From: a virus | Reading direction: 5' to 3' (one strand) | Length of the DNA: 28,245 bases | UHGV virus genome: UHGV-0133447 | Part shown: positions 6,494 to 28,245 of the stretch, in pieces | Position numbering within the stretch: position 1 is the first letter of the stretch | How the letters are laid out: each line of letters starts with the position of its first letter | Program-made: the position numbers and the translations under genes | Notes under the pieces: generated by a model | Told to the model about the DNA's origin: nothing | Seen by the model: only the letters and a program-made list of their open reading frames with translations | Database searches by the model: none

Positions 6494-6496
6494 GGC

Positions 6497-10063: not shown

Positions 10064-10089
10064 ATAAAAAAACCCGCTCGCTGGCGGGT
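10064..10089 (-). terminator. intrinsic terminator just downstream of the putative late promoter (tR'-like)
   Basis: Minus-strand reading acccgc-cagcga-gcgggt followed by seven T (complement of 10066-10072). Confidence 0.5.
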
Positions 10090-10127
10090 TAATCAACGTT
10101 GAACATACAAAGCCCATCGTTATAAAT

Positions 10128-10156
10128 AAAATTACACAAAAGCGGCAACTTTGCAA
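10128..10156 (-). promoter_or_regulatory. candidate late promoter (PR'-like) immediately downstream of Q
   Basis: Minus-strand TTGCAA (10151-10156), 17-nt spacer, TAATTT (10128-10133). About 40-60 nt upstream of the terminator at 10064-10089, analogous to the lambda PR'-tR' arrangement. Confidence 0.35.
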
Positions 10157-10172
10157 GTAACGTGTCGCTAAA

Positions 10173-11003
10173 TTATGCGATATTTATCAAATCAGGCACC
10201 TTTGTCACACGTTTAAGCTGTGAGTCGGTATAACTCTCTTCCTCAAAGCATCTTGTAACCAGACTTTCATAGAAAGGTTTCCAGCTATATCGCCAGGTAC
10301 GTTCTGGCAGACCAGGCAGCTCAGAGAGCATACCCCTGTATGCATTCGAAGACTTAGGACGACTATAACCGCGGCCTTCACAACGTTTACACACTTTGTA
10401 GACAGGCACTCCCTGCAGCTCTGACTCTTTACGGTCCAGGGTTTTTCCCGTACCGCCACACTGGCATCGCTTGCTGATTTTCCCGGTGCCGCCACATTTG
10501 AAGCAAAGAACATGGTCAACCTCTTCCACCTGACGTTTTACTTCAAAATCCGAAGGTGACTGCCTGAGGTCTTTTGCCCATTGCGGTAATCTCATTGTGT
10601 AGTGGCTTTTTTCCACCATTGAGGTTTTTTTTATGAAGCCTGAACCAGAACACTTCCTGCAATCTACGCTGTCAGCTGCAGACGAGGCATAGTCGTTATA
10701 AGCGAACCGAGCTATTATCAGCATACACAGCGGGAACTTCTTCCCTGCTGCTTTTCTTATCGATCGAGGCGCTTTTGATTTTGCATATTCAGCCAACCAA
10801 CTGACGGATGCCTTTCTGTCGTGTTCGCTGATTCCAGCTTTACCCAAAAACATTGACAGGCCTATTCCTGCCTCTGCCTGTGTCATCCCCAGAGCCGCCA
10901 TTACATCTGTCACAGTAAGTTGCTCGCTGGCGGTTGCAAGACCGCTATCGGAAATATGCATTCCTTTGGGCGCAAAAAATTTGGGAATTGATTCAATATT
11001 CAT
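10173..11003 (-). CDS. late-gene antitermination protein Q-like (Cys-rich, zinc-binding type)
   Basis: Repeated Cys pairs CRKCSGSG / CFKCGGTGK / CQCGGTGK / CKRCEGRG. Position directly upstream of promoter plus terminator and adjacent to DUF968 resembles Qin-type Q (memory). ATG at 11003 has a GGAG RBS; the track's GTG at 11021 is an alternative start. Confidence 0.65.
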   Translation of the reverse strand: MNIESIPKFFAPKGMHISDSGLATASEQLTVTDVMAALGMTQAEAGIGLSMFLGKAGISEHDRKASVSWLAEYAKSKAPRSIRKAAGKKFPLCMLIIARFAYNDYASSAADSVDCRKCSGSGFIKKTSMVEKSHYTMRLPQWAKDLRQSPSDFEVKRQVEEVDHVLCFKCGGTGKISKRCQCGGTGKTLDRKESELQGVPVYKVCKRCEGRGYSRPKSSNAYRGMLSELPGLPERTWRYSWKPFYESLVTRCFEEESYTDSQLKRVTKVPDLINIA

Positions 11004-13538: not shown

Positions 13539-13937
13539 TCAACCTACCACTGAACAAACATCCAGCGTTTTTTTATACGCCGATATGGTGATTTCTACCC
13601 GCCCGCCTTTAACATTCTCACCCCACTCTATAGCCATGCGCTTTACCTGGTTGTCGTCCTCCCAGATACCGGCATAAGTCAAAGCATCAAGAAGTGCCTT
13701 GTTGTAATTGTCCAGGTCACGCCGGCGATAGTCTGGCGGATAGAGAATAATTTCTACAGCTGCTGGCGCGGTAGATGGTTTTGGTATTGCACGCAGTTGC
13801 TCAATGATCGCTGAACGTACTGCATGTTTGAATTTACGGCCGGCTGCGCTGACAAGGTGTTTACCTTTTGCGGGCCCCTTATTTGGGGACCGCCAGTAGG
13901 TGTTCACGCTGGGTGGGAATGGAAGAATAAATTTCAT
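13539..13937 (-). CDS. rusA: Holliday-junction resolvase RusA
   Basis: 132 aa. N-terminal MKFILPFPPSVNTYW plus acidic catalytic region typical of RusA. Start overlaps the upstream stop (ATGA). Confidence 0.9.
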   Translation of the reverse strand: MKFILPFPPSVNTYWRSPNKGPAKGKHLVSAAGRKFKHAVRSAIIEQLRAIPKPSTAPAAVEIILYPPDYRRRDLDNYNKALLDALTYAGIWEDDNQVKRMAIEWGENVKGGRVEITISAYKKTLDVCSVVG

Positions 13938-14410
13938 TCTGCCTCCAGCACTATTTTCAACTCAAACGGAACATCTCCTCCGCAATAGCAGAGCGGGCCA
14001 AGGTCAGACATGAGGCTCCACAGGGTCATTGACGTATAGCCATTTTCGTCTGTTATCGGGGGCGAAAAGTCTCCGAAGATCGCCGGGTGCTGGATTCGAT
14101 TCTCTTCGTGCTGGCTTCTCAAGTAACTTAGAGCTTCGGCAGTAAGTTTCACTTTTACGATGCTGTTGAGATTGACCGATATTTCTCTGGCCAACAGCGA
14201 AGAGGTGATACTGATACCGCGAGAAACCCCGCGGGTAATCTTGATGGCCCCTTTTCTCTCCAGCGCCTTGAGGTGCGTTGCTGCTGCATTGGGGGACCGG
14301 CACCCCAGCATGCCGGTCAGTTCGTAAGTTGTAGGCGGAAAACCATGTTTACGCTGATATTCGATCAGGAGGTCAAGGACCTCCTGCTGCCTTAAGGTCA
14401 AGGAAGTCAT
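13934..14410 (-). CDS. LexA-type N-terminal DNA-binding domain protein lacking the S24 peptidase domain
   Basis: From ATG 14410: MTSLTLRQQEVLDLLIEYQRKHGFPPTTYELTGMLGCRSPNAAATHLKALERKGAI closely follows the LexA DNA-binding-domain pattern. The ~90-aa C-terminal part has no Ser/Lys peptidase motifs. Start overlaps the C5-MTase stop (ATGA). Confidence 0.6.
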   Translation of the reverse strand: MTSLTLRQQEVLDLLIEYQRKHGFPPTTYELTGMLGCRSPNAAATHLKALERKGAIKITRGVSRGISITSSLLAREISVNLNSIVKVKLTAEALSYLRSQHEENRIQHPAIFGDFSPPITDENGYTSMTLWSLMSDLGPLCYCGGDVPFELKIVLEAE

Positions 14411-16389
14411 GCTGCCTGCTCCTCTCTGTTCACGCACATTTCGGGTAAGTTGGCGCGTACCAGCGCTTCGGCGAACGGCGGCGGGACGGCATTGCCACAG
14501 CGCGCGACCTGCTTATCTTTCGCGTATTTCACGCCGCGGTAATCCTGGTCAATGATGTACCACTCCGGAAAGCCCTGCGCCCGATAGAGCTCGTGCGGCT
14601 GCAGCATGCGCATGCCGATATCAACGATGCGGTAAGTCACTCCGCCGATTTCCACCAGCCCGGTGCATTCCTCTCCGCAGTATTCCTGCAGGAACGACAG
14701 CACCTGCTGCGCTCGCTCTTCGTCATAGTCCTCGACCGCCAGAGTCGTTTTAACCTCCCCTACATGCTGGCCACCGGCAGTGATAGTCGGCATCGGCTCG
14801 TCAGTTCGCTGGCCATCGCGGCAGGTTCCGCGCAGCTTAACCAGATGAGAAGCGACTAATGCATGGTGATCGACAGTCGTTACTGAATGCGCTGGCTCAT
14901 CCAGCCCCACGCCAGCGCCCTGATAATTCCCTCCGTAGTGTTTTGCCAGGAACGCACCAACTACAGCATGTTTCCCGCCACCAGCCACAACGGTGCCCAG
15001 CGGCTTATCCAGTCCTGGCACGCGAGGTGCCTGTCCTGGCCGTTCCCCGTATCCCATTTGAATGAGCGTCGGCACAACCAGCTGCGATTTACCTCCGCCG
15101 CCCGCGGTGATTGTTGCGCTAGGCTCATCCGCCCGGTGTCCGATGCTGGCGCCGAACTGCCGGGCGATAACCGGAGCGACGACACAGGCGCGCGATTCTT
15201 TCAGGATGGTGTGAGCGGGTTTATCGAGCGGGCGTGGTTTAGCCTGGTACTCGCTGCCGCCATTGCCAGCCAGGAACGGCGCCAGCTCTGCTTCAACAAT
15301 ACCCAGAGCGTGACCATTCCCGCCCGGGCGTTTTGCGGTACCGGCCGTCACCGTCGGCAACGGATCGGTGACTTCCTGCCCGGTAGCTCCAGTTCGGAAT
15401 TTTGTCAGATGAGGTACCGCAATTGCGTAGCCGTGGGTTTTCGTAATCGTCTGTAGCGGATCGTCCAGCGCCTGTCCCCGGAAACAGTCGTATTTGCCGC
15501 GTGTCGTTGTGTGATTGCACTTCACGATGAACGGCGAAGCGCTTTCGATAACAAAGCGCTGAATGCCGCGGGCAATCCGTTTTAGCGTATTCTCTGCCAG
15601 TGACTTTTTGCGACCGAAGATGCTCGGCGCGGGGATTGACCAGTCTATGCATTCCGCAGCTGTACGCCACGGCTCAAGCTGGCCCGCCAGCACGGCGGCA
15701 GACTTCGGATCCCCGTGCGTGGCTTCCGGCCAGACTATCAGTTTCCCGTCCCGGCGCATCACCATGAAGAACCGCTTACGGATGGTCGGCGCGCCATAAT
15801 CGCAGGCGCGCAGCTCGCGAAAATCGACGACATAACCCAGCCCGGCAATTAAGCGCTTGGCCTGCTCGCTATCCGGTGAAAACTCCAGAAACTCGCAACA
15901 CTCCACCAGTGCAGGATGATCTGCTGGAATACCGGTGGTAAGCATCCCGACAAATGCATTGAAAGTTTCACCGATGCGTGCCGGATCCGGTCGCATTTCT
16001 GCCGCGAGTAACGGACCCCACGTCTTAAACTCTTCGACGTTTTCCAGCATCATGACTCGCGGGCCAACATCCAGCGCCCAACGAATGACGATCCATGCCA
16101 GCCCTCGAATAGCTTTCTCTACTGGTTTAGCACCTTTCGCTTTAGAAAAGTGACGACAGTCAGGCGAGAACCATGCCAGGCCGACAGGCTTGCTACTGGT
16201 AGCGGCTAATGGGGATACATCAAACACACTTTCGCAATAGTGAAGCGTGTCGGGATGGTTAGTGCGGTGCATAGCAACGGCGTTAACATCGTGGTTAATA
16301 GCGATATCAACACTGCGCCCTATTGCCAGTTCAATACCTGTACTGGCTCCACCGCCGCCAGCGAAATTATCGACAATAATCTCACGCAT
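14407..16389 (-). CDS. DNA (cytosine-5)-methyltransferase with long repeat-containing variable region
   Basis: 660 aa. DNFAGGGG (motif I), SPDCRHFS (catalytic Cys), MMLENVEEF (ENV), C-terminal QGFP and GNAV motifs. The intervening ~250 aa carries about six related modules of the form P-x-x-T-I/V-T-A-G-G. GAGGGGG RBS. Confidence 0.8.
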   Translation of the reverse strand: MREIIVDNFAGGGGASTGIELAIGRSVDIAINHDVNAVAMHRTNHPDTLHYCESVFDVSPLAATSSKPVGLAWFSPDCRHFSKAKGAKPVEKAIRGLAWIVIRWALDVGPRVMMLENVEEFKTWGPLLAAEMRPDPARIGETFNAFVGMLTTGIPADHPALVECCEFLEFSPDSEQAKRLIAGLGYVVDFRELRACDYGAPTIRKRFFMVMRRDGKLIVWPEATHGDPKSAAVLAGQLEPWRTAAECIDWSIPAPSIFGRKKSLAENTLKRIARGIQRFVIESASPFIVKCNHTTTRGKYDCFRGQALDDPLQTITKTHGYAIAVPHLTKFRTGATGQEVTDPLPTVTAGTAKRPGGNGHALGIVEAELAPFLAGNGGSEYQAKPRPLDKPAHTILKESRACVVAPVIARQFGASIGHRADEPSATITAGGGGKSQLVVPTLIQMGYGERPGQAPRVPGLDKPLGTVVAGGGKHAVVGAFLAKHYGGNYQGAGVGLDEPAHSVTTVDHHALVASHLVKLRGTCRDGQRTDEPMPTITAGGQHVGEVKTTLAVEDYDEERAQQVLSFLQEYCGEECTGLVEIGGVTYRIVDIGMRMLQPHELYRAQGFPEWYIIDQDYRGVKYAKDKQVARCGNAVPPPFAEALVRANLPEMCVNREEQAA

Positions 16390-17335
16390 GAGCGGTCCCC
16401 CTCATGCTGCCGACCAGCCCACCAGCAACGGTGATGATTTCGCTGGTGGGCACGCGCTCCAGCCACAACTGGTTAATGTGGGCCTTCAGCTTGTTCTGCT
16501 GGGAGAACTCCAGATCCTCTGCGCCTTGTACCTGTCCAAAGACGAGTCCAACTTCCAGTGGCCAGATCCGGGATTCAGGCTCAGCCAATGATGCAACAGC
16601 ATCGGGGATGATCACTTCAGGAGACTGAACTGGCGAAACTGGTGACAGGAATTTTCCTGCAGCAAACTCAGCCAGCGCCATACTTGCGCGCCCTTTTGCT
16701 TCCAGCTCAACGCGATCGATATAGCTAAAATGTTCACCGCGCCAGGTCTTATCAAATACCGCAATGGCCCCGGCAAAGAATGCGCTGGTGGGCTTCTGCT
16801 TTTCGTCGGCCGGCACAAACCACGTTGGGAGATCGAATCCAATACGACCACGAATAAACATGATGTGATCGGCATATTCCGGCCACCATGTTTCACTTGT
16901 TGCTGACTTCACGAGGTAAATGTAACGACCACCCTTTTCACGCTGCTCGGCGGTATAGTTCATAATATGAGTCATGCCAGTGATGGCTTGTTTTTCATGG
17001 TACTGCGAACGGCTATACGGCGGATTAGCAAAGGCCGCTCCTCCGAGTTCTACCAAACGACCAGACCAGTCCTGCGTCAGCGCATTATCTTCAGCGGTAT
17101 ACCATGCCGGACATTTTGTATTGCTGTCGTCTGCAAACAGGTCCAGTACCAGCGGGCCAAACATAGCGTTAACGCCCCAGAACAGCAGATCAGGGGTACG
17201 CCATTGATCCCCGACTTCTTTTAAATAATGCGCACTACGCTGGCGCTGTTCCTCAAGTGCCAGGCAATAAGGGCTGACGGTTTTTGTTAAAGTTTGCTCT
17301 TCTGCGGTCATAGCTTCTTGTACTTCCTGACTCAT
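16382..17335 (-). CDS. phage Dam-like N6-adenine DNA methyltransferase with C-terminal extension
   Basis: 317 aa. WRTPD...FANPPYS motif characteristic of the phage N6-adenine methyltransferase family (memory). AGGGGA RBS. Confidence 0.8.
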   Translation of the reverse strand: MSQEVQEAMTAEEQTLTKTVSPYCLALEEQRQRSAHYLKEVGDQWRTPDLLFWGVNAMFGPLVLDLFADDSNTKCPAWYTAEDNALTQDWSGRLVELGGAAFANPPYSRSQYHEKQAITGMTHIMNYTAEQREKGGRYIYLVKSATSETWWPEYADHIMFIRGRIGFDLPTWFVPADEKQKPTSAFFAGAIAVFDKTWRGEHFSYIDRVELEAKGRASMALAEFAAGKFLSPVSPVQSPEVIIPDAVASLAEPESRIWPLEVGLVFGQVQGAEDLEFSQQNKLKAHINQLWLERVPTSEIITVAGGLVGSMRGTAHA

Positions 17336-19221: not shown

Positions 19222-19773
19222 TTATTTCTCCATACACAAAGATTTATTCGCCACGACGCCCGGAGCTGCACACTCGCGGGCGTCACTCTTTTCTGGCTGA
19301 CAAAAGACACGGAACAGTAACGTTAAATGTTCCTGCCATTTCGCCATCACCTGATAGCTGTTCTCCTCAATTTGCTCGCGTTCTGCCTGGTCAATTACCC
19401 CATCAGCTGTAGCTTTACGCAGGTACTGCGAGTGTTTTCCTATCCACTCAATGGACTCCATAAGACGCTGGTTAATATCTGCGTTGTCCACGTCTTCAAT
19501 ATCTGCCAACGGAACAAAAACGCCGTTCGAGTGACGCGCTATAGCATTGGCAATATGATTTGACCCACCAGCACGCTGCAGCACCATTGCCCAGCCGAGA
19601 GGGAAAATCTGATCACCATCGGCACGTAAACGGTTAAACAATGCGTTTTCAGTAACGCCCAGCCACTCCGCAGCTTCCACGTAACCACCGTCCAGTTCGG
19701 TGATAGTCTTTTTAATCGCGGCCACCAGCCACGCCGGTTGCTTCTCTACTTTCCATTCAGGTTCTATACCCAC
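19222..19773 (-). CDS. CII-like / YdaT-like early regulatory protein
   Basis: GTG start with strong AGGAGG RBS. Segment ITELDGGYVEAAEWLGVTENALFNRLRADGDQIFPLGWAMVLQ matches the CP76/CII-like HTH pattern (memory). Position immediately after cro. Confidence 0.5.
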   Translation of the reverse strand: MGIEPEWKVEKQPAWLVAAIKKTITELDGGYVEAAEWLGVTENALFNRLRADGDQIFPLGWAMVLQRAGGSNHIANAIARHSNGVFVPLADIEDVDNADINQRLMESIEWIGKHSQYLRKATADGVIDQAEREQIEENSYQVMAKWQEHLTLLFRVFCQPEKSDARECAAPGVVANKSLCMEK

Positions 19774-19817
19774 GGCTTACCTCCTACTTCTGTGGTTAAC
19801 GCTGCTAAAACCAAATG

Positions 19818-20018
19818 TTATTGTTTGGAATAGATATCTGGTCGGAGATCAAACTTGGTGATCGCACCGGATGTGCTTTTTTCCAGTTTTTTTGCCAGAT
19901 CAAATCCAGCTTTTTTGTAGCCGTTAAAAACTAAACGCAGATAACCGGGTGTAGAGCCAACGTTTGCAGCTAAATTGCTCTGTTGCTCTTTAGTTAATGA
20001 ATCCCAGAACTCTTTCAT
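19818..20018 (-). CDS. cro: Cro-like repressor
   Basis: 66 aa from the ATG at 20018, preceded by AGGAGG. Divergent from cI across an operator-rich spacer. Small HTH-like protein. Confidence 0.7.
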   Translation of the reverse strand: MKEFWDSLTKEQQSNLAANVGSTPGYLRLVFNGYKKAGFDLAKKLEKSTSGAITKFDLRPDIYSKQ

Positions 20019-20029
20019 ATATGTACCTC

Positions 20030-20105
20030 CTGTGTACATATTACACGAAAGAAATGAACCTTCAAGGTACTTGTACCTTGAAGGTACACACGGTTTAATT
20101 TCAAT
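20030..20105. promoter_or_regulatory. divergent cI/cro promoter-operator region
   Basis: Palindromic operators gtaccttgaaggtac (20074-20088) and accttcaaggtac (20058-20070). Minus-strand TTGAAG-16-TAATAT promoter candidate toward cro. Plus-strand TTTAAT -10 candidate immediately before the cI ATG. Confidence 0.5.
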
Positions 20106-20780
20106 ATGAAAACAATCCAGGAAATCAGGCGGTTAAACGCCAGAAAATTGCGTGATGGTGTTGGCGGTAATATTTACTTCGCCAATATGATTGATCGCGA
20201 GCCTACTCAAACCAGCCGGTTCATGGGAGATGGCGCCACTAAAAACATCGGCGATGCAATGGCAAGGCACATTGAAAAGTGTTTTGACTTACCTACTGGG
20301 TGGTTAGATCAGGAACATCAAACCACTAATGTTGCTAAAACGCCCGATGTCTCTGATACAAATAGAAATATCACCATGGTTCCGGTTATATCCTGGGTAC
20401 AAGCAGGAGCATGGACCGAAGTTGGCTATGCTGAGGTTGATTTGAATAGCACTGAAAACTATCCATGCCCTGTGCCTTGTGGGCCGATGACTTATATTCT
20501 TCGTGTTATTGGCGACTCAATGATCGACGAATATAGGCCCGGTGATATGATTTTTGTTGATCCCGAAGTTCCAGCAGTGCATGGAGATGATGTGATCGCC
20601 TTAATGCACGCTTCTGGTGAGACTACATTTAAACGGTTGATTGAAGATGCAGGACAACGCTATCTAAAAGCACTTAACTCAAATTGGCCAGAACCTTACA
20701 TCAAAATCAATGGTAATTGCTCTATCATTGGCACCGTAATTTTTTCCGGTAAACCAAGACGATACCGAACGAAAACATAA
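20106..20780 (+). CDS. cI: CI-like phage repressor (HTH plus S24 LexA-type peptidase domain)
   Basis: 224 aa. C-terminal VIGDSMIDEYRPGDMIFVD...FKRL carries the Ser/Lys S24 signature. N-terminal HTH region. Divergent from cro. Confidence 0.9.
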   Translation: MKTIQEIRRLNARKLRDGVGGNIYFANMIDREPTQTSRFMGDGATKNIGDAMARHIEKCFDLPTGWLDQEHQTTNVAKTPDVSDTNRNITMVPVISWVQAGAWTEVGYAEVDLNSTENYPCPVPCGPMTYILRVIGDSMIDEYRPGDMIFVDPEVPAVHGDDVIALMHASGETTFKRLIEDAGQRYLKALNSNWPEPYIKINGNCSIIGTVIFSGKPRRYRTKT

Positions 20781-20794
20781 CAAAGACTATTAAA

Positions 20795-20815
20795 CCTGCT
20801 TCGGCGGGTTTTTTT
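20795..20815 (+). terminator. intrinsic terminator after cI
   Basis: cctgc-ttcg-gcggg (5-bp stem with one G-U pair, UUCG loop) followed by seven T. Confidence 0.55.
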
Positions 20816-20819
20816 ACAC

Positions 20820-20848
20820 TTGACAATGTACCTCAACGGTACATAATG
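20820..20848 (+). promoter_or_regulatory. strong sigma70-like promoter with embedded operator (PL analogue driving the early-left operon)
   Basis: TTGACA (20820-20825), 16/17-nt spacer, CATAAT/ATAATG (20842-20848). The spacer contains gtacctcaacggtac, the same GTACC-N5-GGTAC operator type as in the cI/cro region. Confidence 0.55.
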
Positions 20849-20953
20849 TACCTAAAAGAAACAGCGAACAGGCAGGACGCCCACGAAGTAGCCGCCCGGG
20901 GCATATGAAGTCCGGGATGATTCGCTGACAGATAAACCAAATAGGAACAGATC

Positions 20954-21187
20954 ATGGCAAGCAAAGGCATTGAAAACCTTATCAAGGACGCATTGGCAAA
21001 CGGCTGTCATGTAGTCCGTAAAGCGCATCGCTTCGAGGTAAGCAAGAAAGGCCAAAAATCAATCACTCTTATTATTTGTGAAGATGGCACAGCTTACCGG
21101 GGAGATATTGACCTAACGATCGCCATAGCCATTCGCACTCAAAAAGAAATGCGCAGAATCCTCGGCCTGCCAGCCAAGGCAAGTTAA
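20954..21187 (+). CDS. hypothetical early protein (77 aa)
   Basis: First ORF after the PL-like promoter; AGGA about 8 nt upstream. No family recognised. Confidence 0.45.
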   Translation: MASKGIENLIKDALANGCHVVRKAHRFEVSKKGQKSITLIICEDGTAYRGDIDLTIAIAIRTQKEMRRILGLPAKAS

Positions 21188-21900
21188 TTACCACAGGTGT
21201 CTTCGGGAGGGGTTGCGGAGCTGGATTGACCACCAGCAACAGAAACTCACCCGACATACAGCAGCCGTTTAGCCCACGGCGTCGGGGGTCCAGTAGACCT
21301 GGATTAATACTGTAGGGGTTGTGCCGGTTGGTCGCCGGCGCCCCGCCCGAAGATTCCTGATCGAACATGGCGAAAGCCGACAGCGTTGAAGGCGATTTTC
21401 TCGGTTTGCGCGCTAAACAATAGCGGGGGTGAAATCGGGGCGGAGAAGCAGAATCCGCGATGTCGGGACTTGATACTTCCGGCCAGACCAACAAGCCGAA
21501 TGATCGCGTAACGGTCCTTTGCATCTGCCCCGGCGAGGTGGCGCCGCCGGACCGGGGCAGATGAATCGTACACAACATGAAAGCGCATTCCATCTTCATC
21601 CGTCGTGGGGACTGGTTTGTAACTGAAGGAGTGCGCTTCCAGTTGTGAACGGCAATATTCACGACCGTTGTATGGCACATGCAGCGTTAGCAGCCCGGAT
21701 GGTTCCCTTGAAGTTCCATGCGCTATCCGGACAACTGGAATGTGCAAGCCAAGTGTTTCAGGCACGACGTGCGCCCCACCAGCGCGGCGAAAAGGTGTGA
21801 CCCCCGGGAAGAGTCCGGGACACAACAGGAAAGAGTACTGAAGATGCCAGGAAACGCCCTACCGCCAGGCAGATAGACGGGTTATCCCGCAAGGGGTGGC

Positions 21901-22043
21901 GGCAGTGCTCTTACCGTTGTGGTGTAGCTCAAATGGATAGAGCGCCCCTTATGTGGGGAGTTGAGCACTAACCAATGTTCGCAACACAGGTTATCTCATG
22001 CGGCCGGCCGGACGTTATGCGGGTTCAAATCCCGTCACCACAG
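21901..22043 (+). ncRNA. candidate tRNA-like structured element, copy B1
   Basis: Leader ggcagtgctcttaccgttgtggt. TGTGGTG (21918-21924) pairs with CACCACA (22036-22042). D-arm-like GCTC-AAATGGATA-GAGC. T-arm-like GCGGG-TTCAAAT-CCCGT (22019-22035). About 60 extra nt between the anticodon-like region and the T-arm. No encoded CCA. Confidence 0.3.
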
Positions 22044-22080
22044 CGCACAACGATGAGGGCATTGACGAGCAAGGCACAGA

Positions 22081-22099
22081 GTCTGGTTCGATTCCAGAC
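22081..22099 (+). other. tRNA T-arm-like hairpin (loop TTCGATT)
   Basis: gtctgg-ttcgatt-ccagac, a 6-bp stem with a loop identical to the tRNA-Thr T-loop at 8506-8581. Confidence 0.4.
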
Positions 22100-22138
22100 G
22101 CCAGGATAGCTCTATATCTGGTGATGGGCAGGGAAAAG

Positions 22139-22155
22139 GTCCGTTCGATTCGGAC
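22139..22155 (+). other. tRNA T-arm-like hairpin (loop TTCGATT)
   Basis: gtccg-ttcgatt-cggac, a 5-bp stem with the same loop sequence. Confidence 0.4.
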
Positions 22156-22158
22156 ACC

Positions 22159-22290
22159 GGCAGTGCTCTCTTCGTTGTGGTAATTGCGGCTATGCGCACG
22201 TGACGAGCCAACCCGTTCATGGAATGCGTTTCCGGGCAGTGTACGTCGCCGGTTATGGCTTAACCCGGCAGGTGGAGGCACCACCGCCAC
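22159..22290 (+). ncRNA. candidate structured element, copy B2
   Basis: Leader ggcagtgctctcttcgttgtggt matches the 21901 leader at 20 of 23 positions. gttgtgg (22173-22179) can pair with ccacaac (22284-22290). Internal cgtcgccgg motif. Confidence 0.25.
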
Positions 22291-22529
22291 AACCTAGTTA
22301 ACTGTGCTGTGTGTAGTCTTGGCGGTTATCCAGTTTTCCACTATCCAAAGGAGGAAGAGGATAACGTTCTGATGGATAACCGCCCTTTTTACACAATACA
22401 AAAGAGCATCACCGGGCGACGGGCTCATTACCCAATCCACCCGGGCGGCGTCCTAACCGCAGGTGCTCTTCTGTGTTGTGTACGGAGAAATTCCCGGCGG
22501 TGGCAGCCGCCTTTCGAGAGGGTAAAACC

Positions 22530-22901
22530 ATGAGTAATGATCGCATGACAGTAGTGCCCGATTTCCTGGGTGAACTGGACGCCGGCGTATTCATGAACAA
22601 GATTGCGGCGGCTCTTAATACCACCGCGCTCGGCGTTCTGAACAACGGCAACAAAGGCAAGGTTGTCCTCACCTTTGATTTTGAGCGTATGGGCAACTCT
22701 GTTGAAGAGAAGCGCGTCAAGATTAAGCACAAGCTGAACTACAGCACCCCAACTCCCCGCGGCAAAGCGTCGGAGGAGGACACCACCGAAACACCAATGT
22801 GGGTTAACAAAGGTGGCAAGCTCACAATCCTGCAGGAGGATCAGGGGCAACTCTTCGGTATCACCGGCGCGGTGGACGGAAAGCTTAAAGCGGCTCAGTG
22901 A
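22530..22901 (+). CDS. conserved phage early-region protein (possibly YfdP-like)
   Basis: 123 aa from ATG 22530 (GAGAGGG upstream); the track ORF starts earlier at 22473. Precedes the DUF2303-like and HD-domain genes, as in the CPS-53 yfdPQR block (memory, uncertain). Confidence 0.5.
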   Translation: MSNDRMTVVPDFLGELDAGVFMNKIAAALNTTALGVLNNGNKGKVVLTFDFERMGNSVEEKRVKIKHKLNYSTPTPRGKASEEDTTETPMWVNKGGKLTILQEDQGQLFGITGAVDGKLKAAQ

Positions 22902-22957
22902 ACCGCACGTACAAATTCACTGATACCACTTCGCTAATCAGTTAATAAGGAATTTTT

Positions 22958-23785
22958 ATGTCTCAGTTAGACAGCGGTACTTTTCAGCAGGTTAAAGATC
23001 TGGTGCTTTCCGGTTATCACCTGAACGATATCCCCGGCCTGGCCTGTCCGACCGCCCTGCTACCGCAGAATACCAGCATTGAAAGCCTGGAGCGTTTTGC
23101 TCTTGAGCGTTTCCGTTTCCGCGGTGCAATGGACACGACTAGCATTGATGATTTCGTTCGCTATTCTGTCGCTTATGCCCTGGAAGAAGAAAAAGCACGT
23201 TGCTTTATTGATGCCGATAACATGCTGGCTCGTTCTATCTTCAACATCGGTACGCTGGATAATCCCGGCCACGCTGATAACGTCGCCTCGATCAAGCTAA
23301 AGAAAACAGCGCCCTTCCGCGCGTTACTGGCGATCAACGGCGATCACCTTAATCAGAAGCAAATCGCCGAATGGCTTGAAGACTGGAGCGACTATCTCAC
23401 TGCGTTCGATGCTGACGGTAACACGATGAAAATCGCCCAGGCCGCTCAGGCAGTTCGCCGCGTCACCATCCAGCAAACTAATGCCTCCGACCATGAAGAT
23501 GGTGATTTCAGTGGCAAAAAATCGCTGATGCAGAGTATTGAAGCCAGCAGTAAAGAGGTTATGCCGGTAGCGTTTGAGTTTAAGTGTGTACCCTATGAAG
23601 GCTTGGGCGAACGTCGTTTCAGTCTGCGCAACAGTCTGCTGAAAAGTAATGACCCGGTATTCGTCCTGCGTATCGTCCAGTTGGAAGCCCAGGAAGAAGC
23701 GATCGCCAATGAGTTCCGTGATCTGCTGGTTGGCAAGTTCGCCGGCAAGCCGGTAGAAACCTTTATCGGCAACTTCAAGGCCTGA
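22958..23785 (+). CDS. DUF2303-like protein (YfdQ-like)
   Basis: 275 aa with AAGGA RBS. Size and position relative to the HD-domain gene match YfdQ-type prophage proteins (memory). Hairpin aaatccccg/cggggattt follows at 23797-23822. Confidence 0.55.
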   Translation: MSQLDSGTFQQVKDLVLSGYHLNDIPGLACPTALLPQNTSIESLERFALERFRFRGAMDTTSIDDFVRYSVAYALEEEKARCFIDADNMLARSIFNIGTLDNPGHADNVASIKLKKTAPFRALLAINGDHLNQKQIAEWLEDWSDYLTAFDADGNTMKIAQAAQAVRRVTIQQTNASDHEDGDFSGKKSLMQSIEASSKEVMPVAFEFKCVPYEGLGERRFSLRNSLLKSNDPVFVLRIVQLEAQEEAIANEFRDLLVGKFAGKPVETFIGNFKA

Positions 23786-23917
23786 TTGCTCTCCATTAAA
23801 TCCCCGTCGTTGCGGGGATTTATTAAAGCGTAATCCTGCAATTAATCGCCACCTGGCGAGGGATTCCTACACCCAAAAATCAGCGCTGTGCAGAGCGCAA
23901 TTAAATGGAGAAATACG

Positions 23918-24445
23918 ATGAGCTTTATTCAAACGTTCACAGGCAAGCACTTTAACTATCTCGATATCCAGCTGGATGCCATTGAGATCGAAGATATCGC
24001 TAACGCACTCTCGAATATTTGCCGCTTTGCTGGCCATCTTCCGGAGTTCTACAGCGTCGGTCAGCACAGCGTGTTAACCAGTCACCTGGTACCACAGGAG
24101 TTTGCACTTGAAGCACTGCTGCACGATGCCGCAGAGGCTTATTTGCAGGATATTCCAGCACCGCTTAAACGCCTGCTCCCGGACTACCGCGCCATTGAGG
24201 ATCGGGTTGATGCTGCTATCCGTCAAAAATTTGGCCTGCCATCTGAGCAGCACCCGACCGTGAAGTATGCCGACCTTGTGATGCTGGCCAGCGAACGTCG
24301 CGACTTTGAAATCGACGACGGCACCCACTGGCCGATGCTCGAAGGCATTATTCCTACCGACCAATTTGTGATTAATCCCGTCCGACCTGGTCAGTCTTAC
24401 GGCATGTTTATGAACCGCTTTAACCAACTGATGGAGCGGCGCTAA
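23918..24445 (+). CDS. HD-domain phosphohydrolase (YfdR-like 5'-deoxynucleotidase)
   Basis: About 175 aa from ATG 23918 (GGAG 7 nt upstream). H...HD motif LLHDAAEAY and downstream Asp residues typical of HD-domain hydrolases. Confidence 0.7.
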   Translation: MSFIQTFTGKHFNYLDIQLDAIEIEDIANALSNICRFAGHLPEFYSVGQHSVLTSHLVPQEFALEALLHDAAEAYLQDIPAPLKRLLPDYRAIEDRVDAAIRQKFGLPSEQHPTVKYADLVMLASERRDFEIDDGTHWPMLEGIIPTDQFVINPVRPGQSYGMFMNRFNQLMERR

Positions 24446-24645
24446 TGGCACATGTGAAAGTGAAAGAATTGGTTGCTGCAGCATACGCTGCAGCACCTGA
24501 CCTACCACCAGCAGCAGCACAATTAATGCAAGACATAGCGTCAAGGCTGGATGTGACCTTTGTCGCCCTTACAGAGGCAATGGACCAGAACACCGCTATG
24601 GCCGCGATGATAGCGAACCTGAGCGAGGAAAACAGAAATGGCTAA
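24445..24645 (+). CDS. hypothetical small protein (66 aa)
   Basis: Start overlaps the upstream stop (TAATG) and its own end overlaps the ParB-like start by 8 nt, so it is translationally coupled on both sides. Confidence 0.45.
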   Translation: MAHVKVKELVAAAYAAAPDLPPAAAQLMQDIASRLDVTFVALTEAMDQNTAMAAMIANLSEENRNG

Positions 24646-25426
24646 AAACTCGATCGATGCTTATGGCGCCAGCGGCAAGACAAACGTTCTGATGTTCGAG
24701 CCGAAAAATCTGCATATTGTCACTGACAAGGCTCACCCGCTTTACGATGAGCGTATTCACTTACCTCTCAGTGAGGCAATGGTGCTGAACATCATGGATC
24801 AAGGTGTTCTGGAGCCGATTATTGTGTGGAAAGACCCGGAAACGGGGCTGTCCTGTGTGGTCGATGGCCGTCAGCGTGTCCGCCATACCCTGGAAGCTAA
24901 CAGGCGTCTGGCAAAAGAGGGAAAAACCCCACTGCTGGTTCCGGCTGTCACTAAACGCGGTTCTGCTGTTCGTATGGCGCAGGCAATGGTCAGCGCAAAC
25001 GAAATCCGCCAGGCCGATACACCGCTGGGCCGAGCCAAAAAGATGGCTGATGCACTGGAGCGCGGGCATGACGAGGAAGACCTCGCGCTGATGTTCGGCG
25101 TCAGCGTCCCCACTGTACGCGCTACGCTATCCCTTCTGGATGCCACTCAGGCAGTCAAAGACGCGGTAGAGTCCGGCACAGTAACAGTTACCCAGGCACG
25201 TCAACTGGCATCACTAAAACCCGAAGAACAGCGGGAAAAGGTAGCCGAAATCGAAGCGGCGACCGCTGGCACTACTGGTCATGAAAAAGCGCGTCGTCAG
25301 CGCCAGGTTCTCGGCGATAAGAAACCGCGCCTTAAAACTCGCAAAGAAATCACTAAAGCCCTCGAAGCTGCCAGCGGTGAATACGCTGATGCTCTCCGCT
25401 GGGTACTTGGGGAGGTAACATTATGA
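24638..25426 (+). CDS. ParB-like nuclease-domain protein with HTH
   Basis: 262 aa. N-terminal LEPIIVWKDPETGLSCVVDGRQRV matches the ParB/Srx GxxR core. Central EEDLALMFGVSVPTVRATLSLL is HTH-like. GAGGAA RBS. Confidence 0.7.
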   Translation: MAKNSIDAYGASGKTNVLMFEPKNLHIVTDKAHPLYDERIHLPLSEAMVLNIMDQGVLEPIIVWKDPETGLSCVVDGRQRVRHTLEANRRLAKEGKTPLLVPAVTKRGSAVRMAQAMVSANEIRQADTPLGRAKKMADALERGHDEEDLALMFGVSVPTVRATLSLLDATQAVKDAVESGTVTVTQARQLASLKPEEQREKVAEIEAATAGTTGHEKARRQRQVLGDKKPRLKTRKEITKALEAASGEYADALRWVLGEVTL

Positions 25427-26499
25427 GTAAAGTAGGAGATCATTTCTTTGAGTTTCCTGCATCACGTGGAACTCAGGGCGTTTCAATCGTCCTGATGCTG
25501 AGTGTTCCTGCACGGACCCTTACGCGAGTTCTCGCCAGCGATAATTACGGGGACACTCTTGAACGCTCGCAGCGAGAACTGAACCCAGCCAGGGCGAAAA
25601 AGTTTTATCAGTATCTTGTTGAAGCATACGAAAACAAAGAGCCATTTATCATTCCACCGCTGGTAGGTAACTGCGATTCGTATGTTGAATTCGAAGAGTT
25701 CGGAAACACTAATGTCGGGGTGGCCCGATTCCCAATGGATGCAGAGATTAAATTGTTTGATGGTCAGCATCGCGCAGCAGGTATTGCGGAATATTGTCGC
25801 ACCATTGATGAACCGATCCATGTCCCGATGATGCTTACTCTCCAGTTGCCACTGAAAACGCGGCAGCAGTTTTTCTCGGACATTAACAACAATGTTTCGA
25901 AGCCATCTGCGGCAATCAACATGGCCTATAACGGGCGCGATAAGAACGCGCAGGTGATGGTCAGCTTTATCAGTTCACACGACGTCTTTTCTGAAGTCAC
26001 CGATTTTGAGCATAACGTCGTTCCCGCGAAAAACGATAAGTGGGTGAGCTTCAAGGCCCTTAGTGATGCCACAGCAAAATTTTCAGGTTCCTGCTCGCAG
26101 GATGATCTTGAAGGATTATGGAATGCGTGGCTTATGCTGACAGGTTTAGATGATATTCGCCGCGGTACGAATCAAGCCGAATATAAACGCGAGTATATCC
26201 AGTTCCATGCCGTGATGATTAATGCCTTCGGTTACGCAGTGCAGCGGCTAAGCGAAGGCCGGGGAGTTCGTGGGGTCACGCTGATGATTGAGGATCTGGT
26301 AATGAATACCGGCATTGCCGATCGTGAAGATTTCTTTCTTATTTCATCATGGGTCGGAATTTGCGCCAGCTGTGAGAAAGCTAGGCCAACGGTCATTGCG
26401 AATGTATCCGCTCAAAAGGCTGCAGCATCACGCCTGATGGATGCCATCGTGAATAAAAGCTTGTCTGTTAGTCGCGGTAAGGAGGCCAGCCATGACTGA
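25423..26499 (+). CDS. DGQHR-domain protein (DndB-like)
   Basis: 358 aa with the literal motif LFDGQHRAAGIAE. Size similar to DndB-family proteins. Start overlaps the ParB-like stop by 4 nt. Confidence 0.7.
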   Translation: MSKVGDHFFEFPASRGTQGVSIVLMLSVPARTLTRVLASDNYGDTLERSQRELNPARAKKFYQYLVEAYENKEPFIIPPLVGNCDSYVEFEEFGNTNVGVARFPMDAEIKLFDGQHRAAGIAEYCRTIDEPIHVPMMLTLQLPLKTRQQFFSDINNNVSKPSAAINMAYNGRDKNAQVMVSFISSHDVFSEVTDFEHNVVPAKNDKWVSFKALSDATAKFSGSCSQDDLEGLWNAWLMLTGLDDIRRGTNQAEYKREYIQFHAVMINAFGYAVQRLSEGRGVRGVTLMIEDLVMNTGIADREDFFLISSWVGICASCEKARPTVIANVSAQKAAASRLMDAIVNKSLSVSRGKEASHD

Positions 26500-27073
26500 G
26501 GCTGAATTAGCGCTTGAACGAGCAAAAAAGCTGGCGTTCTTAATGACAGAGCGTTTCAGTATGAACCCCATTAGCGCCAAACTGCTTAATGAAGCATGGC
26601 GTCTTGCATTCCCTGACGAAGTTGCAGTGGCCAGGCGCATGAGGGCGCTGGTAGAGGCGCTGGAGAAGGCGCAGACCAAAAACGCACTCGTTGCCGGCGG
26701 CATTGAGGCTACAGCAAAGCTACATGAGCGCATCGCCGAGCTGGAAGAAGCAGAGCAAAAACTCTGTGCCGCTAACGTGACGCTTGATGCTCGCGCGGAA
26801 TTGGCTGAGCGCCGGTTGGCAGAGATGGAGTCCCGTACCGTCACCATTGAGCCATTCCGCTCGTTTGTCACTGATGCCGACTTAGCAGCGCTCCACCGCT
26901 TCGCCGAATGCTGTGATGACCCTGAATCTGGCGGTCACGATTTGGAACAAGAGCAGGTAAGGCGGCTTGAGGCAATCGGAGCATTGCAGCGTTCGGGGCG
27001 AATTAGCTACATCACGAGCTTTGGTGATGTCCTGATTTCGATTACCGCTGGCATCAAGTGGGAGGCTAAGTGA
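26492..27073 (+). CDS. hypothetical coiled-coil protein
   Basis: 193 aa. Start overlaps the DGQHR stop by 8 nt. Ala/Glu/Leu-rich heptad-like central region. Confidence 0.45.
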   Translation: MTEAELALERAKKLAFLMTERFSMNPISAKLLNEAWRLAFPDEVAVARRMRALVEALEKAQTKNALVAGGIEATAKLHERIAELEEAEQKLCAANVTLDARAELAERRLAEMESRTVTIEPFRSFVTDADLAALHRFAECCDDPESGGHDLEQEQVRRLEAIGALQRSGRISYITSFGDVLISITAGIKWEAK

Positions 27074-27249
27074 TGGCAGAACGCTGGAAAATTTATCTCA
27101 CTATCGCATTCATCGCCCTTGGCGCTACACCGATAAGCATGGTAGCTGCAAAGATTTATGTACCCTCATGGGCGCTTATTTGCGGGCACTGTGGCGCGAT
27201 AATAGCCGGATTTATTTGTGCAGAATTAGGAAGGGGAGCCGACCAATGA
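27073..27249 (+). CDS. small hydrophobic protein (58 aa)
   Basis: ATG overlaps the upstream stop (TGATG) and its stop overlaps the next ATG (ATGA). Two hydrophobic segments and a CGHCG motif. Below the ORF-track size cutoff, translated by hand. Confidence 0.35.
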   Translation: MAERWKIYLTIAFIALGATPISMVAAKIYVPSWALICGHCGAIIAGFICAELGRGADQ

Positions 27250-28154
27250 CCAGCAAAATATCCATAACCGACGAGCGACTTGCATCAATCCAGGCGACAA
27301 CAGTCGGGGTAAAACAGCGCGGGGCAATGCCGCGTGGTTTTTCAAAGTATCTTGTTGAAAACCTGGCCGCAATACTGGCAGAGCTACAGGAACGTCGCAA
27401 TGCCGCAAAAGGTCTTGACCTGGCGGGCTGGCAATTCAAATCAGTAAACGGTGACTGGTTGGGCCTAATTGACGAACACGGAAAGAATCAGGCCTTTCGT
27501 GAGGGTTGCGAAGTTCGCGAGGTTTTCGCTATGGCCGATGGCGTCAATGAACGCGACCAGGTACGCCGCGAGCACGCCGAGTGGTCACAGGCTACATTCG
27601 GCAATGTTGGTCCGGTTGGCCCATTGAAGCACCTGAGCAAAGAAGCGCTGGAAGCTGCTGCCGAGCCTGGCGACCTGTCGGAGTTTGCTGATATGCAGTT
27701 CCTGCTTTGGGACGCCCAGCGCCGGGCTGGTATCACTGATGATCAGATTACCCAGGCGATGATCGAGAAACTGGCGGTGAACAAACAGCGCGAATGGCCT
27801 GAGCCGAAAGACGGTGAGCCACGGTTGCACATTAAAGATCAGCCATCGGCGGTAGGGCCAGTAACAGACGCTATGGCTTACGCATTCCATCATGCGCTAA
27901 CCGATGGTCCCCTGGGTGATGACGATGTGGAGGATATTAAGATCGGATTGAGAGCAGCTTTCGCTAATGTAACCACCTATCAGCCATTACCAGTAGTGCT
28001 GAAAGAGCATCAAATCCGCGAACTAGTCAATAAACTGCGTGATATAGCTATTGAATATCACGGTACACAACAATTGCGTGAGCATATTGCTTGTGTTGTC
28101 CGCGCCGCTATGATCGCGGTCGCACAACCAGCGCCAAAAAGCGAAGTGAATTAG
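27246..28154 (+). CDS. DUF550-like (MazG-type dATP/dGTP pyrophosphohydrolase domain) protein
   Basis: About 302 aa from ATG 27246; the track ORF starts upstream at 27168. Central HAEWSQATFGN...LSKEALEAAAEPGDLSEFADMQFLLWDAQRRAGI has MazG-like acidic spacing (memory). Confidence 0.5.
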   Translation: MTSKISITDERLASIQATTVGVKQRGAMPRGFSKYLVENLAAILAELQERRNAAKGLDLAGWQFKSVNGDWLGLIDEHGKNQAFREGCEVREVFAMADGVNERDQVRREHAEWSQATFGNVGPVGPLKHLSKEALEAAAEPGDLSEFADMQFLLWDAQRRAGITDDQITQAMIEKLAVNKQREWPEPKDGEPRLHIKDQPSAVGPVTDAMAYAFHHALTDGPLGDDDVEDIKIGLRAAFANVTTYQPLPVVLKEHQIRELVNKLRDIAIEYHGTQQLREHIACVVRAAMIAVAQPAPKSEVN

Positions 28155-28196
28155 TAATATTCCCCGGGTGCAGCCGGGCTGTATGGAGATCCTGTC

Positions 28197-28245
28197 ATGG
28201 CAAAACTTATGAAAGCGAGTCAATGGGGAAAACGCGAATTTACCA
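28197..28245 (+). CDS. start of a further ORF (MAKLMKASQWGKREFT...), truncated by window end
   Basis: ATG at 28197 with GGAG about 9 nt upstream, after hairpin cccgg-gtgcag-ccggg (28163-28178). Confidence 0.3.
   Translation, partial: MAKLMKASQWGKREFT

Follow-up and report, generated by a model that had tools for sequence, protein, structure and literature searches.

A DGQHR-domain protein encoded in the early-left operon of a Klebsiella-type prophage: genomic context, assortment with a ParB-like gene and a possible role in DNA modification

The sequence considered in this work is the viral genome UHGV-0133447 (one strand, 28,245 nucleotides [nt]; the whole of this stretch is referred to as the window), which corresponds to the public metagenome contig ENA ERZ1744604 NODE_199 and carries most of a lambdoid Klebsiella-type prophage. 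At the promoter-distal part of its early-left (PL) operon it contains a block of six open reading frames (ORFs), including genes for a ParB-like protein of 262 amino acids (aa), a DGQHR (DndB-like) protein of 358 aa and a DUF550 protein of 302 aa. A previous reading of this region, made from the sequence alone, described the block as one translationally coupled module. The analyses reported here indicate that the block, taken as a whole, is a mosaic accessory region of the ordinary kind, and that its DGQHR gene belongs to an uncharacterised clade, found on mobile elements, of a known protein superfamily. We tentatively suggest that the DGQHR protein is an early-expressed, nucleoside triphosphate (NTP)-gated, DNA-binding accessory that is tied to DNA modification and establishment.

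The genomic context of these genes was surveyed in loci drawn from 40 species-representative genomes, from 80 viral contigs anchored on the DGQHR gene and from 80 viral contigs anchored on the ParB-like gene. ORFs were called in each of these loci, the neighbouring genes were classified, and the DGQHR proteins were grouped at 90% identity into clusters (n = 39).

The DGQHR protein and its relationship to DndB

The 358 aa protein was matched by the DGQHR model TIGR03187 with 193.7 bits and by the DndB model PF14072 with 147.7 bits. Both of these values are above the curated cut-offs (58.85 and 29.1, respectively), and the DGQHR motif is thus not an incidental feature of this protein. The assignments of the ParB-like, DGQHR and DUF550 domains that were made in the sequence-only reading likewise hold in Pfam, NCBIfam and phrog searches. 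Judged by its sequence, the protein is not DndB proper: its score with the DndB equivalog model TIGR03233 is 100 bits, under the cut-off of 328, and it is about 26% identical to the genuine DndB heading the dndBCDE operon of an enterobacterial dnd island (L207). A scan of PADLOC-DB gave a match of this protein to the DndB model only (PDLC02658) and none to the DpdB model. The closest DGQHR protein (97% identity) is from Klebsiella oxytoca, and the family comprises 554 clusters at 50% identity when relatives with E values up to 1e-3 are included, and 47 clusters at E <= 1e-30.

The residues RSQR (48–51), R57, FDGQHR (112–117), R147, F151/D153/N155, Y169 and D215 are invariant in relatives of this protein down to 29% identity, and the QR pair, the DGQHR pentapeptide and the FxxxN motif are all present and are invariant across relatives at 29–62% identity. 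A model of the protein constructed by AlphaFold2 from a 41-sequence alignment had a predicted local distance difference test (pLDDT) score of 90.1 and a predicted template modelling (pTM) score of 0.83. The N-terminal domain has the ParB/sulfiredoxin (Srx) fold with the motifs RSQR, FDGQHR and RQQFFSDIN. In ParB, Srx, SspE and DpdB, the positions equivalent to the invariant residues form a nucleotide-binding pocket (PMC10164549, PMC4619093), and a DndB-like protein is known to bind ATP and GTP (PMC12704722). For the helical C-terminal half of the model no structural match and no nuclease fold were detected, nor was there a DUF1524/HNH match in Pfam. Sequence searches for relatives of solved structure also gave no match, the best E value being 0.47 (FliG). 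An Rx4-6H motif of the HEPN type has been proposed for DndB (PMC3632139), and a corresponding RNase site was considered for the DGQHR protein as well. The residues K255/R256...H262 are kept in its close relatives, but H262 is lost in L030 and L033, and this site was rejected as a feature of the family.

The catalytic genes of the dnd and dpd systems were already thought to be missing when the sequence alone was read, and their absence is upheld by our searches. With the DndD and DndE proteins of L207 as queries, tblastn searches of the window and 207 fetched loci (208 sequences) revealed no match beyond L207 itself, while DndC matched, outside L207, only two loci anchored on the ParB-like gene that lack DGQHR, and gave no match in the window. 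Additionally, no DpdA/TGT, QueC/D/E or DUF328 was found by Pfam scans in any of the long ORFs of the window, nor in the genes beyond it in L201, a longer sibling contig with identical genes.

Among the known systems, DndB (DptB) resembles the 358 aa protein in its DGQHR domain (PF14072, TIGR03187) with the QR, DGQHR and FxxxN motifs, in its ParB/Srx-fold N-terminus and helical C-terminus, in its lack of a nuclease domain and in its length of about 360 aa. However, DndB sits in a dnd island, whereas the gene described here is located in a phage early operon or, for some of its relatives, in a plasmid leading region. DpdB, an ATPase with the ParB fold, has a DGQQR motif (PMC10164549), in contrast to the DGQHR of the window protein. 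The Dpd system differs further in that DpdA/TGT, DpdC and the genes of the queuosine pathway are lacking from the window, and in that the recurrent neighbour of DGQHR genes is a methyltransferase (see below) and not a transglycosylase.

Since DndB acts on the dnd operon as an autoregulatory repressor whose action is modulated by ATP (PMC4507180), one explanation to be weighed is that the DGQHR protein is a transcription factor of the same type, i.e., a sequence-specific, NTP-modulated repressor of phage genes or of a host dnd/ssp locus that leaves methyltransferases untouched. It might in this way hinder, for instance, a host defence based on phosphorothioates. The DGQHR domain is common to both proteins, and enterobacterial hosts often carry dnd islands, L207 being an example. 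Nevertheless, we regard this explanation as quite unlikely. The identity to true DndB noted above is low and the equivalog score is far under its cut-off, homologues of dndD and dndE are absent from the 208 sequences, and the only dndC-like genes are those of the two loci without DGQHR. Further, a search for repeats in the region 19700–28245 revealed no repeated operator-like motif near the DGQHR gene, and repression of a host dnd locus would leave the recurrent methyltransferase neighbour unexplained.

Methyltransferases, plasmid leading regions and the proposed function

A DNA methyltransferase is the first or second same-strand downstream gene in 13 of the 39 DGQHR clusters. The enzymes that occupy this slot belong to five unrelated families (MT-A70, D12, PF05869 Dam, N6_N4 and C5), and methyltransferases account for 36 of the 240 genes in the slot versus 48 of 2492 elsewhere in the same loci. 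Within one of the 90% clusters, which consists of 23 loci, three methyltransferase families alternate in this position. The same arrangement can be seen in deposited annotations, where the order in Salmonella phage SPN1S is DGQHR, DNA methyltransferase and integrase, and Vibrio phage Va_PF430-3_p42 is alike. Fusions of a ParB-CTPase fold with a DNA methyltransferase, for which an anti-defence role has been suggested, are enriched in prophages (PMC12704722). They also bring together a ParB-fold nucleotide-binding module and an orphan methyltransferase on mobile elements, and by analogy the pairs of a DGQHR gene followed by a methyltransferase gene look like a split version of them. However, the DGQHR protein and the methyltransferase each have a gene of their own, the part with the ParB fold belongs to the DndB/DGQHR type and not to PF02195, and in the phage lineage of the window the methyltransferase is not adjacent.

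Orphan DNA methyltransferases of the N6_N4, C5 and Dam types are encoded on the opposite strand of the window (Table 1). The Dam and C5 genes overlap by 8 nt, and their products are 38 and 54% identical, respectively, to those of a gene pair located two to three genes downstream of DGQHR in a Rheinheimera prophage (L030). The Dam and C5 genes form a conserved two-gene cassette, and the enzymes are candidate partners of the DGQHR protein. Directly downstream of the C5 gene, with the longest ORFs overlapping by 31 nt, lies a gene for a 167 aa protein that has a LexA DNA-binding domain without the S24 peptidase. Its function may be to regulate the methyltransferase cassette; alternatively, it may be a DNA-binding protein of an SOS-mimicking type.

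Homologues of the DGQHR protein with about 42% identity were found in 1065 plasmid records, of which 883 are conjugative. In a pOXA-48-type IncL/M plasmid (L199, NZ_MK249855), a 427 aa homologue is encoded at 8989–10272 in the leading region, about 8 kb from mobA/traI, in a co-oriented array with an antirestriction gene, ssb, Hha, DUF1380 and DUF4942. The gene is preceded in this plasmid by those for a small helix-turn-helix (HTH) regulator and a JAB-domain protein, and DUF4942 is found three annotated genes downstream. In many of the 63.5-kb variants of pOXA-48 the DGQHR gene is interrupted by IS1B, and hence it is dispensable for the maintenance of this plasmid. A longer variant of the DGQHR protein (about 438 aa) is encoded in loci from Buttiauxella, Dryocola and Pseudescherichia (L019–L023), where it is followed by psiA, a plasmid SOS-inhibition gene. 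psiA is the next gene after DGQHR in five enterobacterial loci, and in one of them (L023) it is the next same-strand gene. The psiA neighbourhood is another entry-phase context for this family.

The leading regions of plasmids are enriched in anti-defence genes and orphan methyltransferases (PMC11541004). The positions of DGQHR genes in the PL operon and in leading regions point to a function at entry rather than in the resident lysogen. An anti-defence role was among the possibilities raised from the sequence alone, and the context of the family in other elements points in that direction. The link of the DGQHR clade to orphan methyltransferases and to leading regions is suggestive and, in the literature that could be searched, has not been described; of the eight papers found to mention DGQHR, none is concerned with phages or plasmids.

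In the function that we tentatively propose, the DGQHR protein would be made from PL right after infection or induction. It would bind a nucleoside triphosphate by means of a pocket composed of the RSQR, DGQHR and FxxDIN motifs, and the resulting switch would engage DNA. The protein might then assist or gate a DNA-modifying enzyme, by analogy with DndB in phosphorothioation and with DpdB, the partner of DpdA; DpdB's ATPase activity is stimulated by DpdA-DNA (PMC10164549). The enzymes concerned would be orphan methyltransferases that the phage itself encodes elsewhere in the prophage (Dam-type, C5 and N6/N4), or the incoming DNA may be protected in some other way. As an outcome, new phage DNA would be shielded from host restriction.

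A number of observations weigh against this proposal. In the window's own clade (49 loci), an adjacent methyltransferase was found in only 1 of the 49 loci, and the partner enzymes would, purely by inference, have to be distant methyltransferases. The loci behind the methyltransferase counts are also not phylogenetically independent. Accessory genes generally collect at the end of the PL operon, and the observed co-location could reflect a shared hot spot and not a shared function. As DndB is a repressor, a purely regulatory role of the DGQHR protein would be equally compatible with the data. Lastly, expression from PL is deduced from consensus scans only. A more general form of the proposal, which we consider somewhat unlikely, is that the DGQHR proteins of mobile elements constitute a widespread class of NTP-gated DNA-loading accessories, working with orphan methyltransferases of any family or otherwise shielding incoming DNA. 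They would then represent one establishment and anti-restriction device common to the early operons of temperate phages and the leading regions of conjugative plasmids, with the carbapenemase plasmid pOXA-48 among the latter, and this device would have been rewired to an orphan ParB-HTH partner in the Klebsiella lineage of the window.

The opposite kind of role, in which the protein attacks DNA, also has to be considered. The 358 aa protein resembles GmrSD, SspE, BrxU and DndI in its N-terminal domain, a ParB/Srx-fold NTPase that carries the motifs DGQ(Q/H)R, QR and FxxxN, the fold as well as the DGQxR, QR and FxxxN motifs being common to the DGQHR protein and GmrS/DUF262 (PMC4619093). Its BFVD matches include proteins with the GmrSD N-terminal domain, the PADLOC model that it matches is that of DndB, and prophages often carry defence genes. 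It could accordingly be imagined to serve in prophage defence or superinfection exclusion, attacking incoming modified or foreign DNA like the DUF262/GmrS module of these type IV enzymes or the ParB/Srx nuclease Osa. However, this possibility is very doubtful. The GmrSD-type enzymes have a DUF1524/HNH nuclease, whereas the 358 aa protein has no such domain and no Pfam match to DUF262, and the HEPN-like R/K-x-H pattern is not kept family-wide. Moreover, the position of the DGQHR gene is that of an entry-phase gene of a mobile element and not of a host defence island: it is located far inside the PL operon, which is under repressor control, and has no promoter-like site to itself, and its plasmid homologue is in a leading region beside antirestriction genes.

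Assortment of the ParB-like gene and the other genes of the block

The association of the ParB-like and DGQHR genes was examined in both directions. Among loci in which the ParB-like protein is at least 90% identical to that of the window and enough downstream sequence is available, the DGQHR gene was present in 21 of 77 and absent from the other 56. In the ParB loci that lack DGQHR an Ea22-like gene comes directly after the ParB-like gene, and L124–L127 retain the order YfdP-YfdQ-HD-66aa-ParB at 97% identity without DGQHR. When the DGQHR protein is at least 87% identical, the ParB-like gene was observed directly upstream in 32 of 47 loci and was missing in 15. A gene for a ParB-HTH protein adjoins DGQHR in 2 of the 39 clusters, and beyond the window's cluster in 1 of 38 (L008, Phytobacter), where it precedes a 69% identical DGQHR protein and its product shows no pairwise similarity to the window ParB-like protein (BLASTP E = 33). 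The ParB-like genes near DGQHR in L025 and L028 were also considered as support for such pairing and were rejected, as they belong to ordinary ParA-ParB/KorB partition pairs of plasmid-like elements. The genes for the 193 aa, 59 aa and DUF550 proteins assort independently across the loci as well. The six genes are independently assorting cassettes and not one fixed machine, and the adjacency of the ParB-like and DGQHR genes is a lineage-specific arrangement, which is frequent but not obligate.

The co-occurrence of ParB-like and DGQHR genes that the sequence-only reading led one to expect thus largely fails in a neighbourhood survey, 37 of the 39 DGQHR clusters having no ParB-HTH neighbour. 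That reading had also regarded ParB-like and DGQHR proteins as known partners in the Dnd and Dpd systems, but the descriptions of the two systems do not include a distinct ParB that is paired with a DGQHR protein (PMC11662687, PMC10164549); as DndB and DpdB are themselves ParB-fold proteins, the claimed partnership is not a feature of either. An obligate two-protein unit could nevertheless be envisaged, in which translational coupling joins a ParB-like protein whose HTH provides site recognition to a DGQHR protein acting as the NTPase. Such a unit would sense or bind (modified) DNA or mediate exclusion, and the products of the small flanking genes would be its accessory subunits. In accordance with this, the two genes overlap by 4 nt, a Shine-Dalgarno-like run is found inside the ParB-like gene, the latter is directly upstream in the majority of loci of this DGQHR clade (32/47), and the presence in L008 of an unrelated-looking ParB-HTH protein in the same slot hints at selection for a ParB-HTH protein there. 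The existence of such a unit is, however, unlikely in view of the 56 loci with near-identical ParB-like genes and no DGQHR, the 15 near-identical DGQHR loci with no ParB and the 37 clusters without ParB-HTH, and because the neighbours in L025 and L028 are partition pairs. Additionally, the ParB-like family is confined to Klebsiella phage-like records, whereas the DGQHR family spans phages and plasmids.

In the 262 aa protein, a putative ParB/Srx nucleotide-binding domain at the N-terminus is followed by an HTH and a short tail. The protein was matched by PF17762 HTH_ParB (E = 9.7e-12, 45.4 bits) and by phrog_1033, 'ParB-like partition protein' (E = 1.2e-74); the score with TIGR00180 (31.7 bits) is under the cut-off of 58.45 and PF02195 was not reported. 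Its residues 47–240 align with Spo0J (1vz0) and Noc (7ng0), with E values of about 5e-6 for the N-terminal domain. Box II reads GRQRVR in place of GERRxR and Box III reads ANEIRQ in place of ENLQRE, so that the G, the two R and the N/R positions are kept and the acidic residue of each box is replaced. Because of these two replacements CTP hydrolysis may have been lost. From the sequence, we infer that nucleotide binding is plausible and likelier than hydrolysis, which is doubtful. No C-terminal dimerisation domain was recognisable by Pfam in this protein, and PADLOC gave no match for it.

A function in partition, one of those suggested previously, is unlikely and was rejected. No ParA/CbiA/AAA_31 protein was found among the ORFs of the window or in the annotated relatives L001 and L002 (in contrast to L025, which carries a true ParA-ParB/KorB pair), and a search for parS-like palindromes in 19700–28245 retrieved only the cI operators and pairs at the chance level. 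Further, the element is an integrating prophage, with an integrase and a host junction present in L201. As is predicted for the 262 aa protein, HerB (YfjB) of the F plasmid, KorB and Noc combine an N-terminal ParB nucleotide-binding domain with an HTH and have no ParA partner. HerB is the orphan ParB encoded in the leading region of the F plasmid. It binds to sites on the host chromosome and alters the transcriptional programme immediately after entry; it differs in having 652 aa and four domains, including a D3/D4 dimerisation core (PMC13370423), whereas the window protein ends soon after its HTH. Because D3 and D4 are missing, the latter is not a member of the HerB family and the analogy is a functional one only. 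The C-terminal parts of KorB and Noc are also missing from it. By analogy with these proteins, the ParB-like protein is most likely a separate, orphan NTP-switch HTH protein, which would function as a site-specific DNA-bound regulator or silencer; it may cooperate with the DGQHR protein in this one phage lineage.

With regard to the organisation of the block, the ORF coordinates and an independent gene caller, which returned the same six genes with identical starts, confirm that six consecutive ORFs on the + strand overlap at every junction. Successive genes overlap by 8, 4, 8, 4 (or 1) and 4 nt. Shine-Dalgarno-like runs rich in purines (GGGGAGG, AAGGAGG, GGGAGG and GGAAGGGGAG) lie ahead of four starts. 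Such a run and the gene caller both back the start of the DUF550 gene at 27246. The upstream HD-domain gene overlaps the 66 aa gene by 1 nt and is hence a seventh gene in this chain, which makes the left boundary of the block at 24445 arbitrary. Of the 12 pairs of neighbouring genes in the operon on the other strand of this prophage, 8 overlap as well. As overlapping junctions are the rule across the prophage, overlap is a mark of a phage operon and not of a dedicated module. Thus, the genes, overlaps and domains that the sequence-only reading described are real, but the single coupled module in which it placed them is not borne out; tight overlap in a phage operon is no evidence of a functional module.

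The 66 aa and 59 aa products, in view of their full-length phrog matches, represent real conserved phage genes. In L001, L007 and L008, and likewise in many viral loci, a relative of the 66 aa gene lies upstream of a ParB or a DGQHR gene. The 59 aa protein has two hydrophobic segments, as read off its sequence, and is likely embedded in the membrane; its gene was found at 92% identity after a ParB-like gene without DGQHR (L148). The 193 aa protein is helical and charged and has no Pfam or NCBIfam match and one insignificant match in PADLOC. Only its residues 18–99 match phage proteins, of which one is annotated as Ead/Ea22-like, and no relatives of its C-terminus were found in the phage collection. 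By single linkage it joins mosaic proteins beginning MTDITELAQ that follow ParB or DGQHR genes elsewhere; the resulting 'cc193' cluster was rejected as one family, being a heterogeneous mosaic Ea22-like set. Three parts make up the 302 aa protein: an Ea22-like variable N-terminus, a MazG-like dATP/dGTP pyrophosphohydrolase domain (DUF550, PF04447, 138.9 bits; MazZ, 7ody, is matched weakly) and a C-terminal module that is also variable. The 193 aa protein and the N-terminus of the DUF550 protein are part of a mosaic Ead/Ea22-like set with common short N-terminal modules (e.g., MT..ITELAQ and ..ELARMALAAMDSEPVA) and unrelated C-termini. These modules are the same as those of the Ead/Ea22-like proteins of the lambda ea region, with which the two proteins also share the position between the early genes and xis/int.

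The enzymes of this part of the operon suggest one further explanation. The HD hydrolase (weakly YfbR/DatZ-like) and the DUF550 protein (MazZ-like), which share this operon, correspond to the two types of enzyme found together with PurZ in Z-genome phages. One could view the HD phosphohydrolase, both ParB-fold NTP-binding proteins and the DUF550 protein as a nucleotide-pool module that reshapes dNTP/NTP pools or destroys nucleotide second messengers early in infection. The genes of an HD deoxyribonucleoside 5'-monophosphate phosphatase family and of a MazG-like pyrophosphohydrolase indeed flank the ParB-DGQHR pair, and in 34 of the 49 loci of the window's clade a DUF550 gene is no more than four genes away from DGQHR. 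Further, DUF550 has dATP/dGTP pyrophosphohydrolase activity in Z-genome phages, where enzymes of the DatZ and MazZ types work together (PMC12884076). However, we consider this explanation highly improbable. DUF550 is ubiquitous at this position of the operon, with or without DGQHR, and is rare in other DGQHR clades (3/43 and 0/29), and proteins with the ParB fold, being switches or NTPases of low turnover, are not enzymes that deplete pools. The window contains no PurZ or other gene of the pathway, a difference from the MazZ/DUF550 systems of Z-genome phages, and a Z-genome (PurZ) pathway was rejected for this reason.

Prophage setting and significance

The nearest DNA relatives of the window are Klebsiella phages and prophages, with 77–99% identity. 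Its minus-strand genes include those for terminase, a lysis cassette, the STnc100 small RNA, tRNA-Thr, the N6/N4 methyltransferase, the Q antiterminator, DUF968, KilA-N and RusA, followed by the C5 and Dam-type methyltransferases, a replication gene and cII. A candidate PL promoter, matching the consensus at 11 of 12 positions in a promoter scan, is located directly 3' of the rightward cI-type repressor gene and is overlapped by two operator-like repeats (Table 1); a further copy of the repeat is in the divergent promoter region. The + strand order after this promoter is YfdP-like, YfdQ/DUF2303, HD hydrolase and then the six genes of the block. No promoter-like site was detected downstream of it by the scan of the + strand from 20848 to 28245, and a weaker match (9/12) lies upstream, within cI. 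From these sequence features, the candidate PL would be the promoter of the whole + strand operon including the block. The sibling contig L201 continues from DUF550 to a 69 aa gene, a 392 aa integrase and the host genes for ecotin, mqo and an AI-2E transporter, and hence the position of the block corresponds to the ea region of lambda, just before xis and int.

Table 1. Coordinates, strands and characteristics of the features of the window discussed in this work
Feature	Position	Strand	Characteristics
STnc100 small RNA	6494-6691	-	100.7 bits; late and nin region
tRNA-Thr (TGT)	8506-8581	-	late and nin region
N6_N4 methyltransferase	8572-9621	-	orphan
LexA-domain protein	13934-14437	-	167 aa
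C5 methyltransferase	14407-16389	-	660 aa; orphan
Dam-type methyltransferase	16382-17335	-	PF05869; orphan
Operator-like repeat	20021-20040		ATGTACC..GGTACAT; divergent promoter region
cI-type repressor	20106-20780	+	Peptidase_S24 domain
Weaker promoter match	20524-20551		9/12; within cI
Candidate PL promoter	20820-20847	+	TTGACA-16-CATAAT; with operators 20820..20863
Operator-like repeat	20826-20845		ATGTACC..GGTACAT
Operator-like repeat	20845-20863		ATGTACC..GGTACAT
Region from PL to first long + strand gene	20850-22470		about 1.6 kb
77 aa ORF	20954-21187	+	
tRNA match	21918-22043	+	Rfam, 40 bits
HD-domain phosphohydrolase	23888-24445	+	YfdR-like (deoxyribonucleoside 5'-monophosphate phosphatase family); phrog_318, E 7.8e-98
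66 aa protein	24445-24645	+	conserved phage protein; phrog_12248, E 7.7e-32, full length
ParB-like protein	24638-25426	+	262 aa
DGQHR protein	25423-26499	+	358 aa
193 aa protein	26492-27073	+	
59 aa protein	27070-27249	+	GTG start (or ATG at 27073, 58 aa); phrog_4918, E 3e-38, full length
DUF550 protein	27246-28154	+	302 aa; longest ORF form begins 27168

Some other features of the prophage may also be mentioned. The HD gene has a weak YfbR-like Pfam match (20.7 bits, under the cut-off), and its start according to the gene caller is at 23918. Between PL and the first long + strand gene, the 77 aa ORF is the sole convincing one on this strand. Matches to parts of this region are present in 136 phage records, those of ST64B, phiNP and Stx2c phages among them, and mostly fall where no feature is annotated; the segment 21560–21830 is 87% identical in Klebsiella phage 1 LV-2017. 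One possibility is that lambdoid phages without an obvious N gene have a conserved leader or a non-coding RNA here. Within it, a tRNA match above the Rfam gathering score, for which ARAGORN made no call, has a 68-nt insert replacing the anticodon arm. It is followed by two more T-arm-like segments (22083–22155), and a 24-nt direct repeat is present at 21900 and 22158. A tRNA of normal length (52.8 bits) is found at the equivalent position upstream of yfdP in the Phytobacter prophage L008. Based upon its sequence, the window feature may be a disrupted or intron-bearing phage tRNA. The tRNA-Thr of the late and nin region shares 10 nt with the N6_N4 methyltransferase ORF, at the 3' end of the latter.

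To our knowledge, the sole role known for the DGQHR/DndB fold is that of a regulator in phosphorothioation islands, and its cousins are the NTPase heads of type IV restriction enzymes and of DpdB. The present analysis reveals a sizeable DGQHR clade without those partners, which comprises 554 clusters at 50% identity and is present in more than 1000 plasmid records, including those of the pOXA-48 type, and in many temperate phages. This clade sits where mobile elements keep their entry-phase genes and, in phages, beside interchangeable DNA methyltransferases. If it is true that the DGQHR protein helps or times methylation, or otherwise counters restriction, it would constitute a new anti-restriction component that is common to phages and clinically important resistance plasmids, and the DGQHR gene would provide a simple genetic target for testing plasmid establishment.

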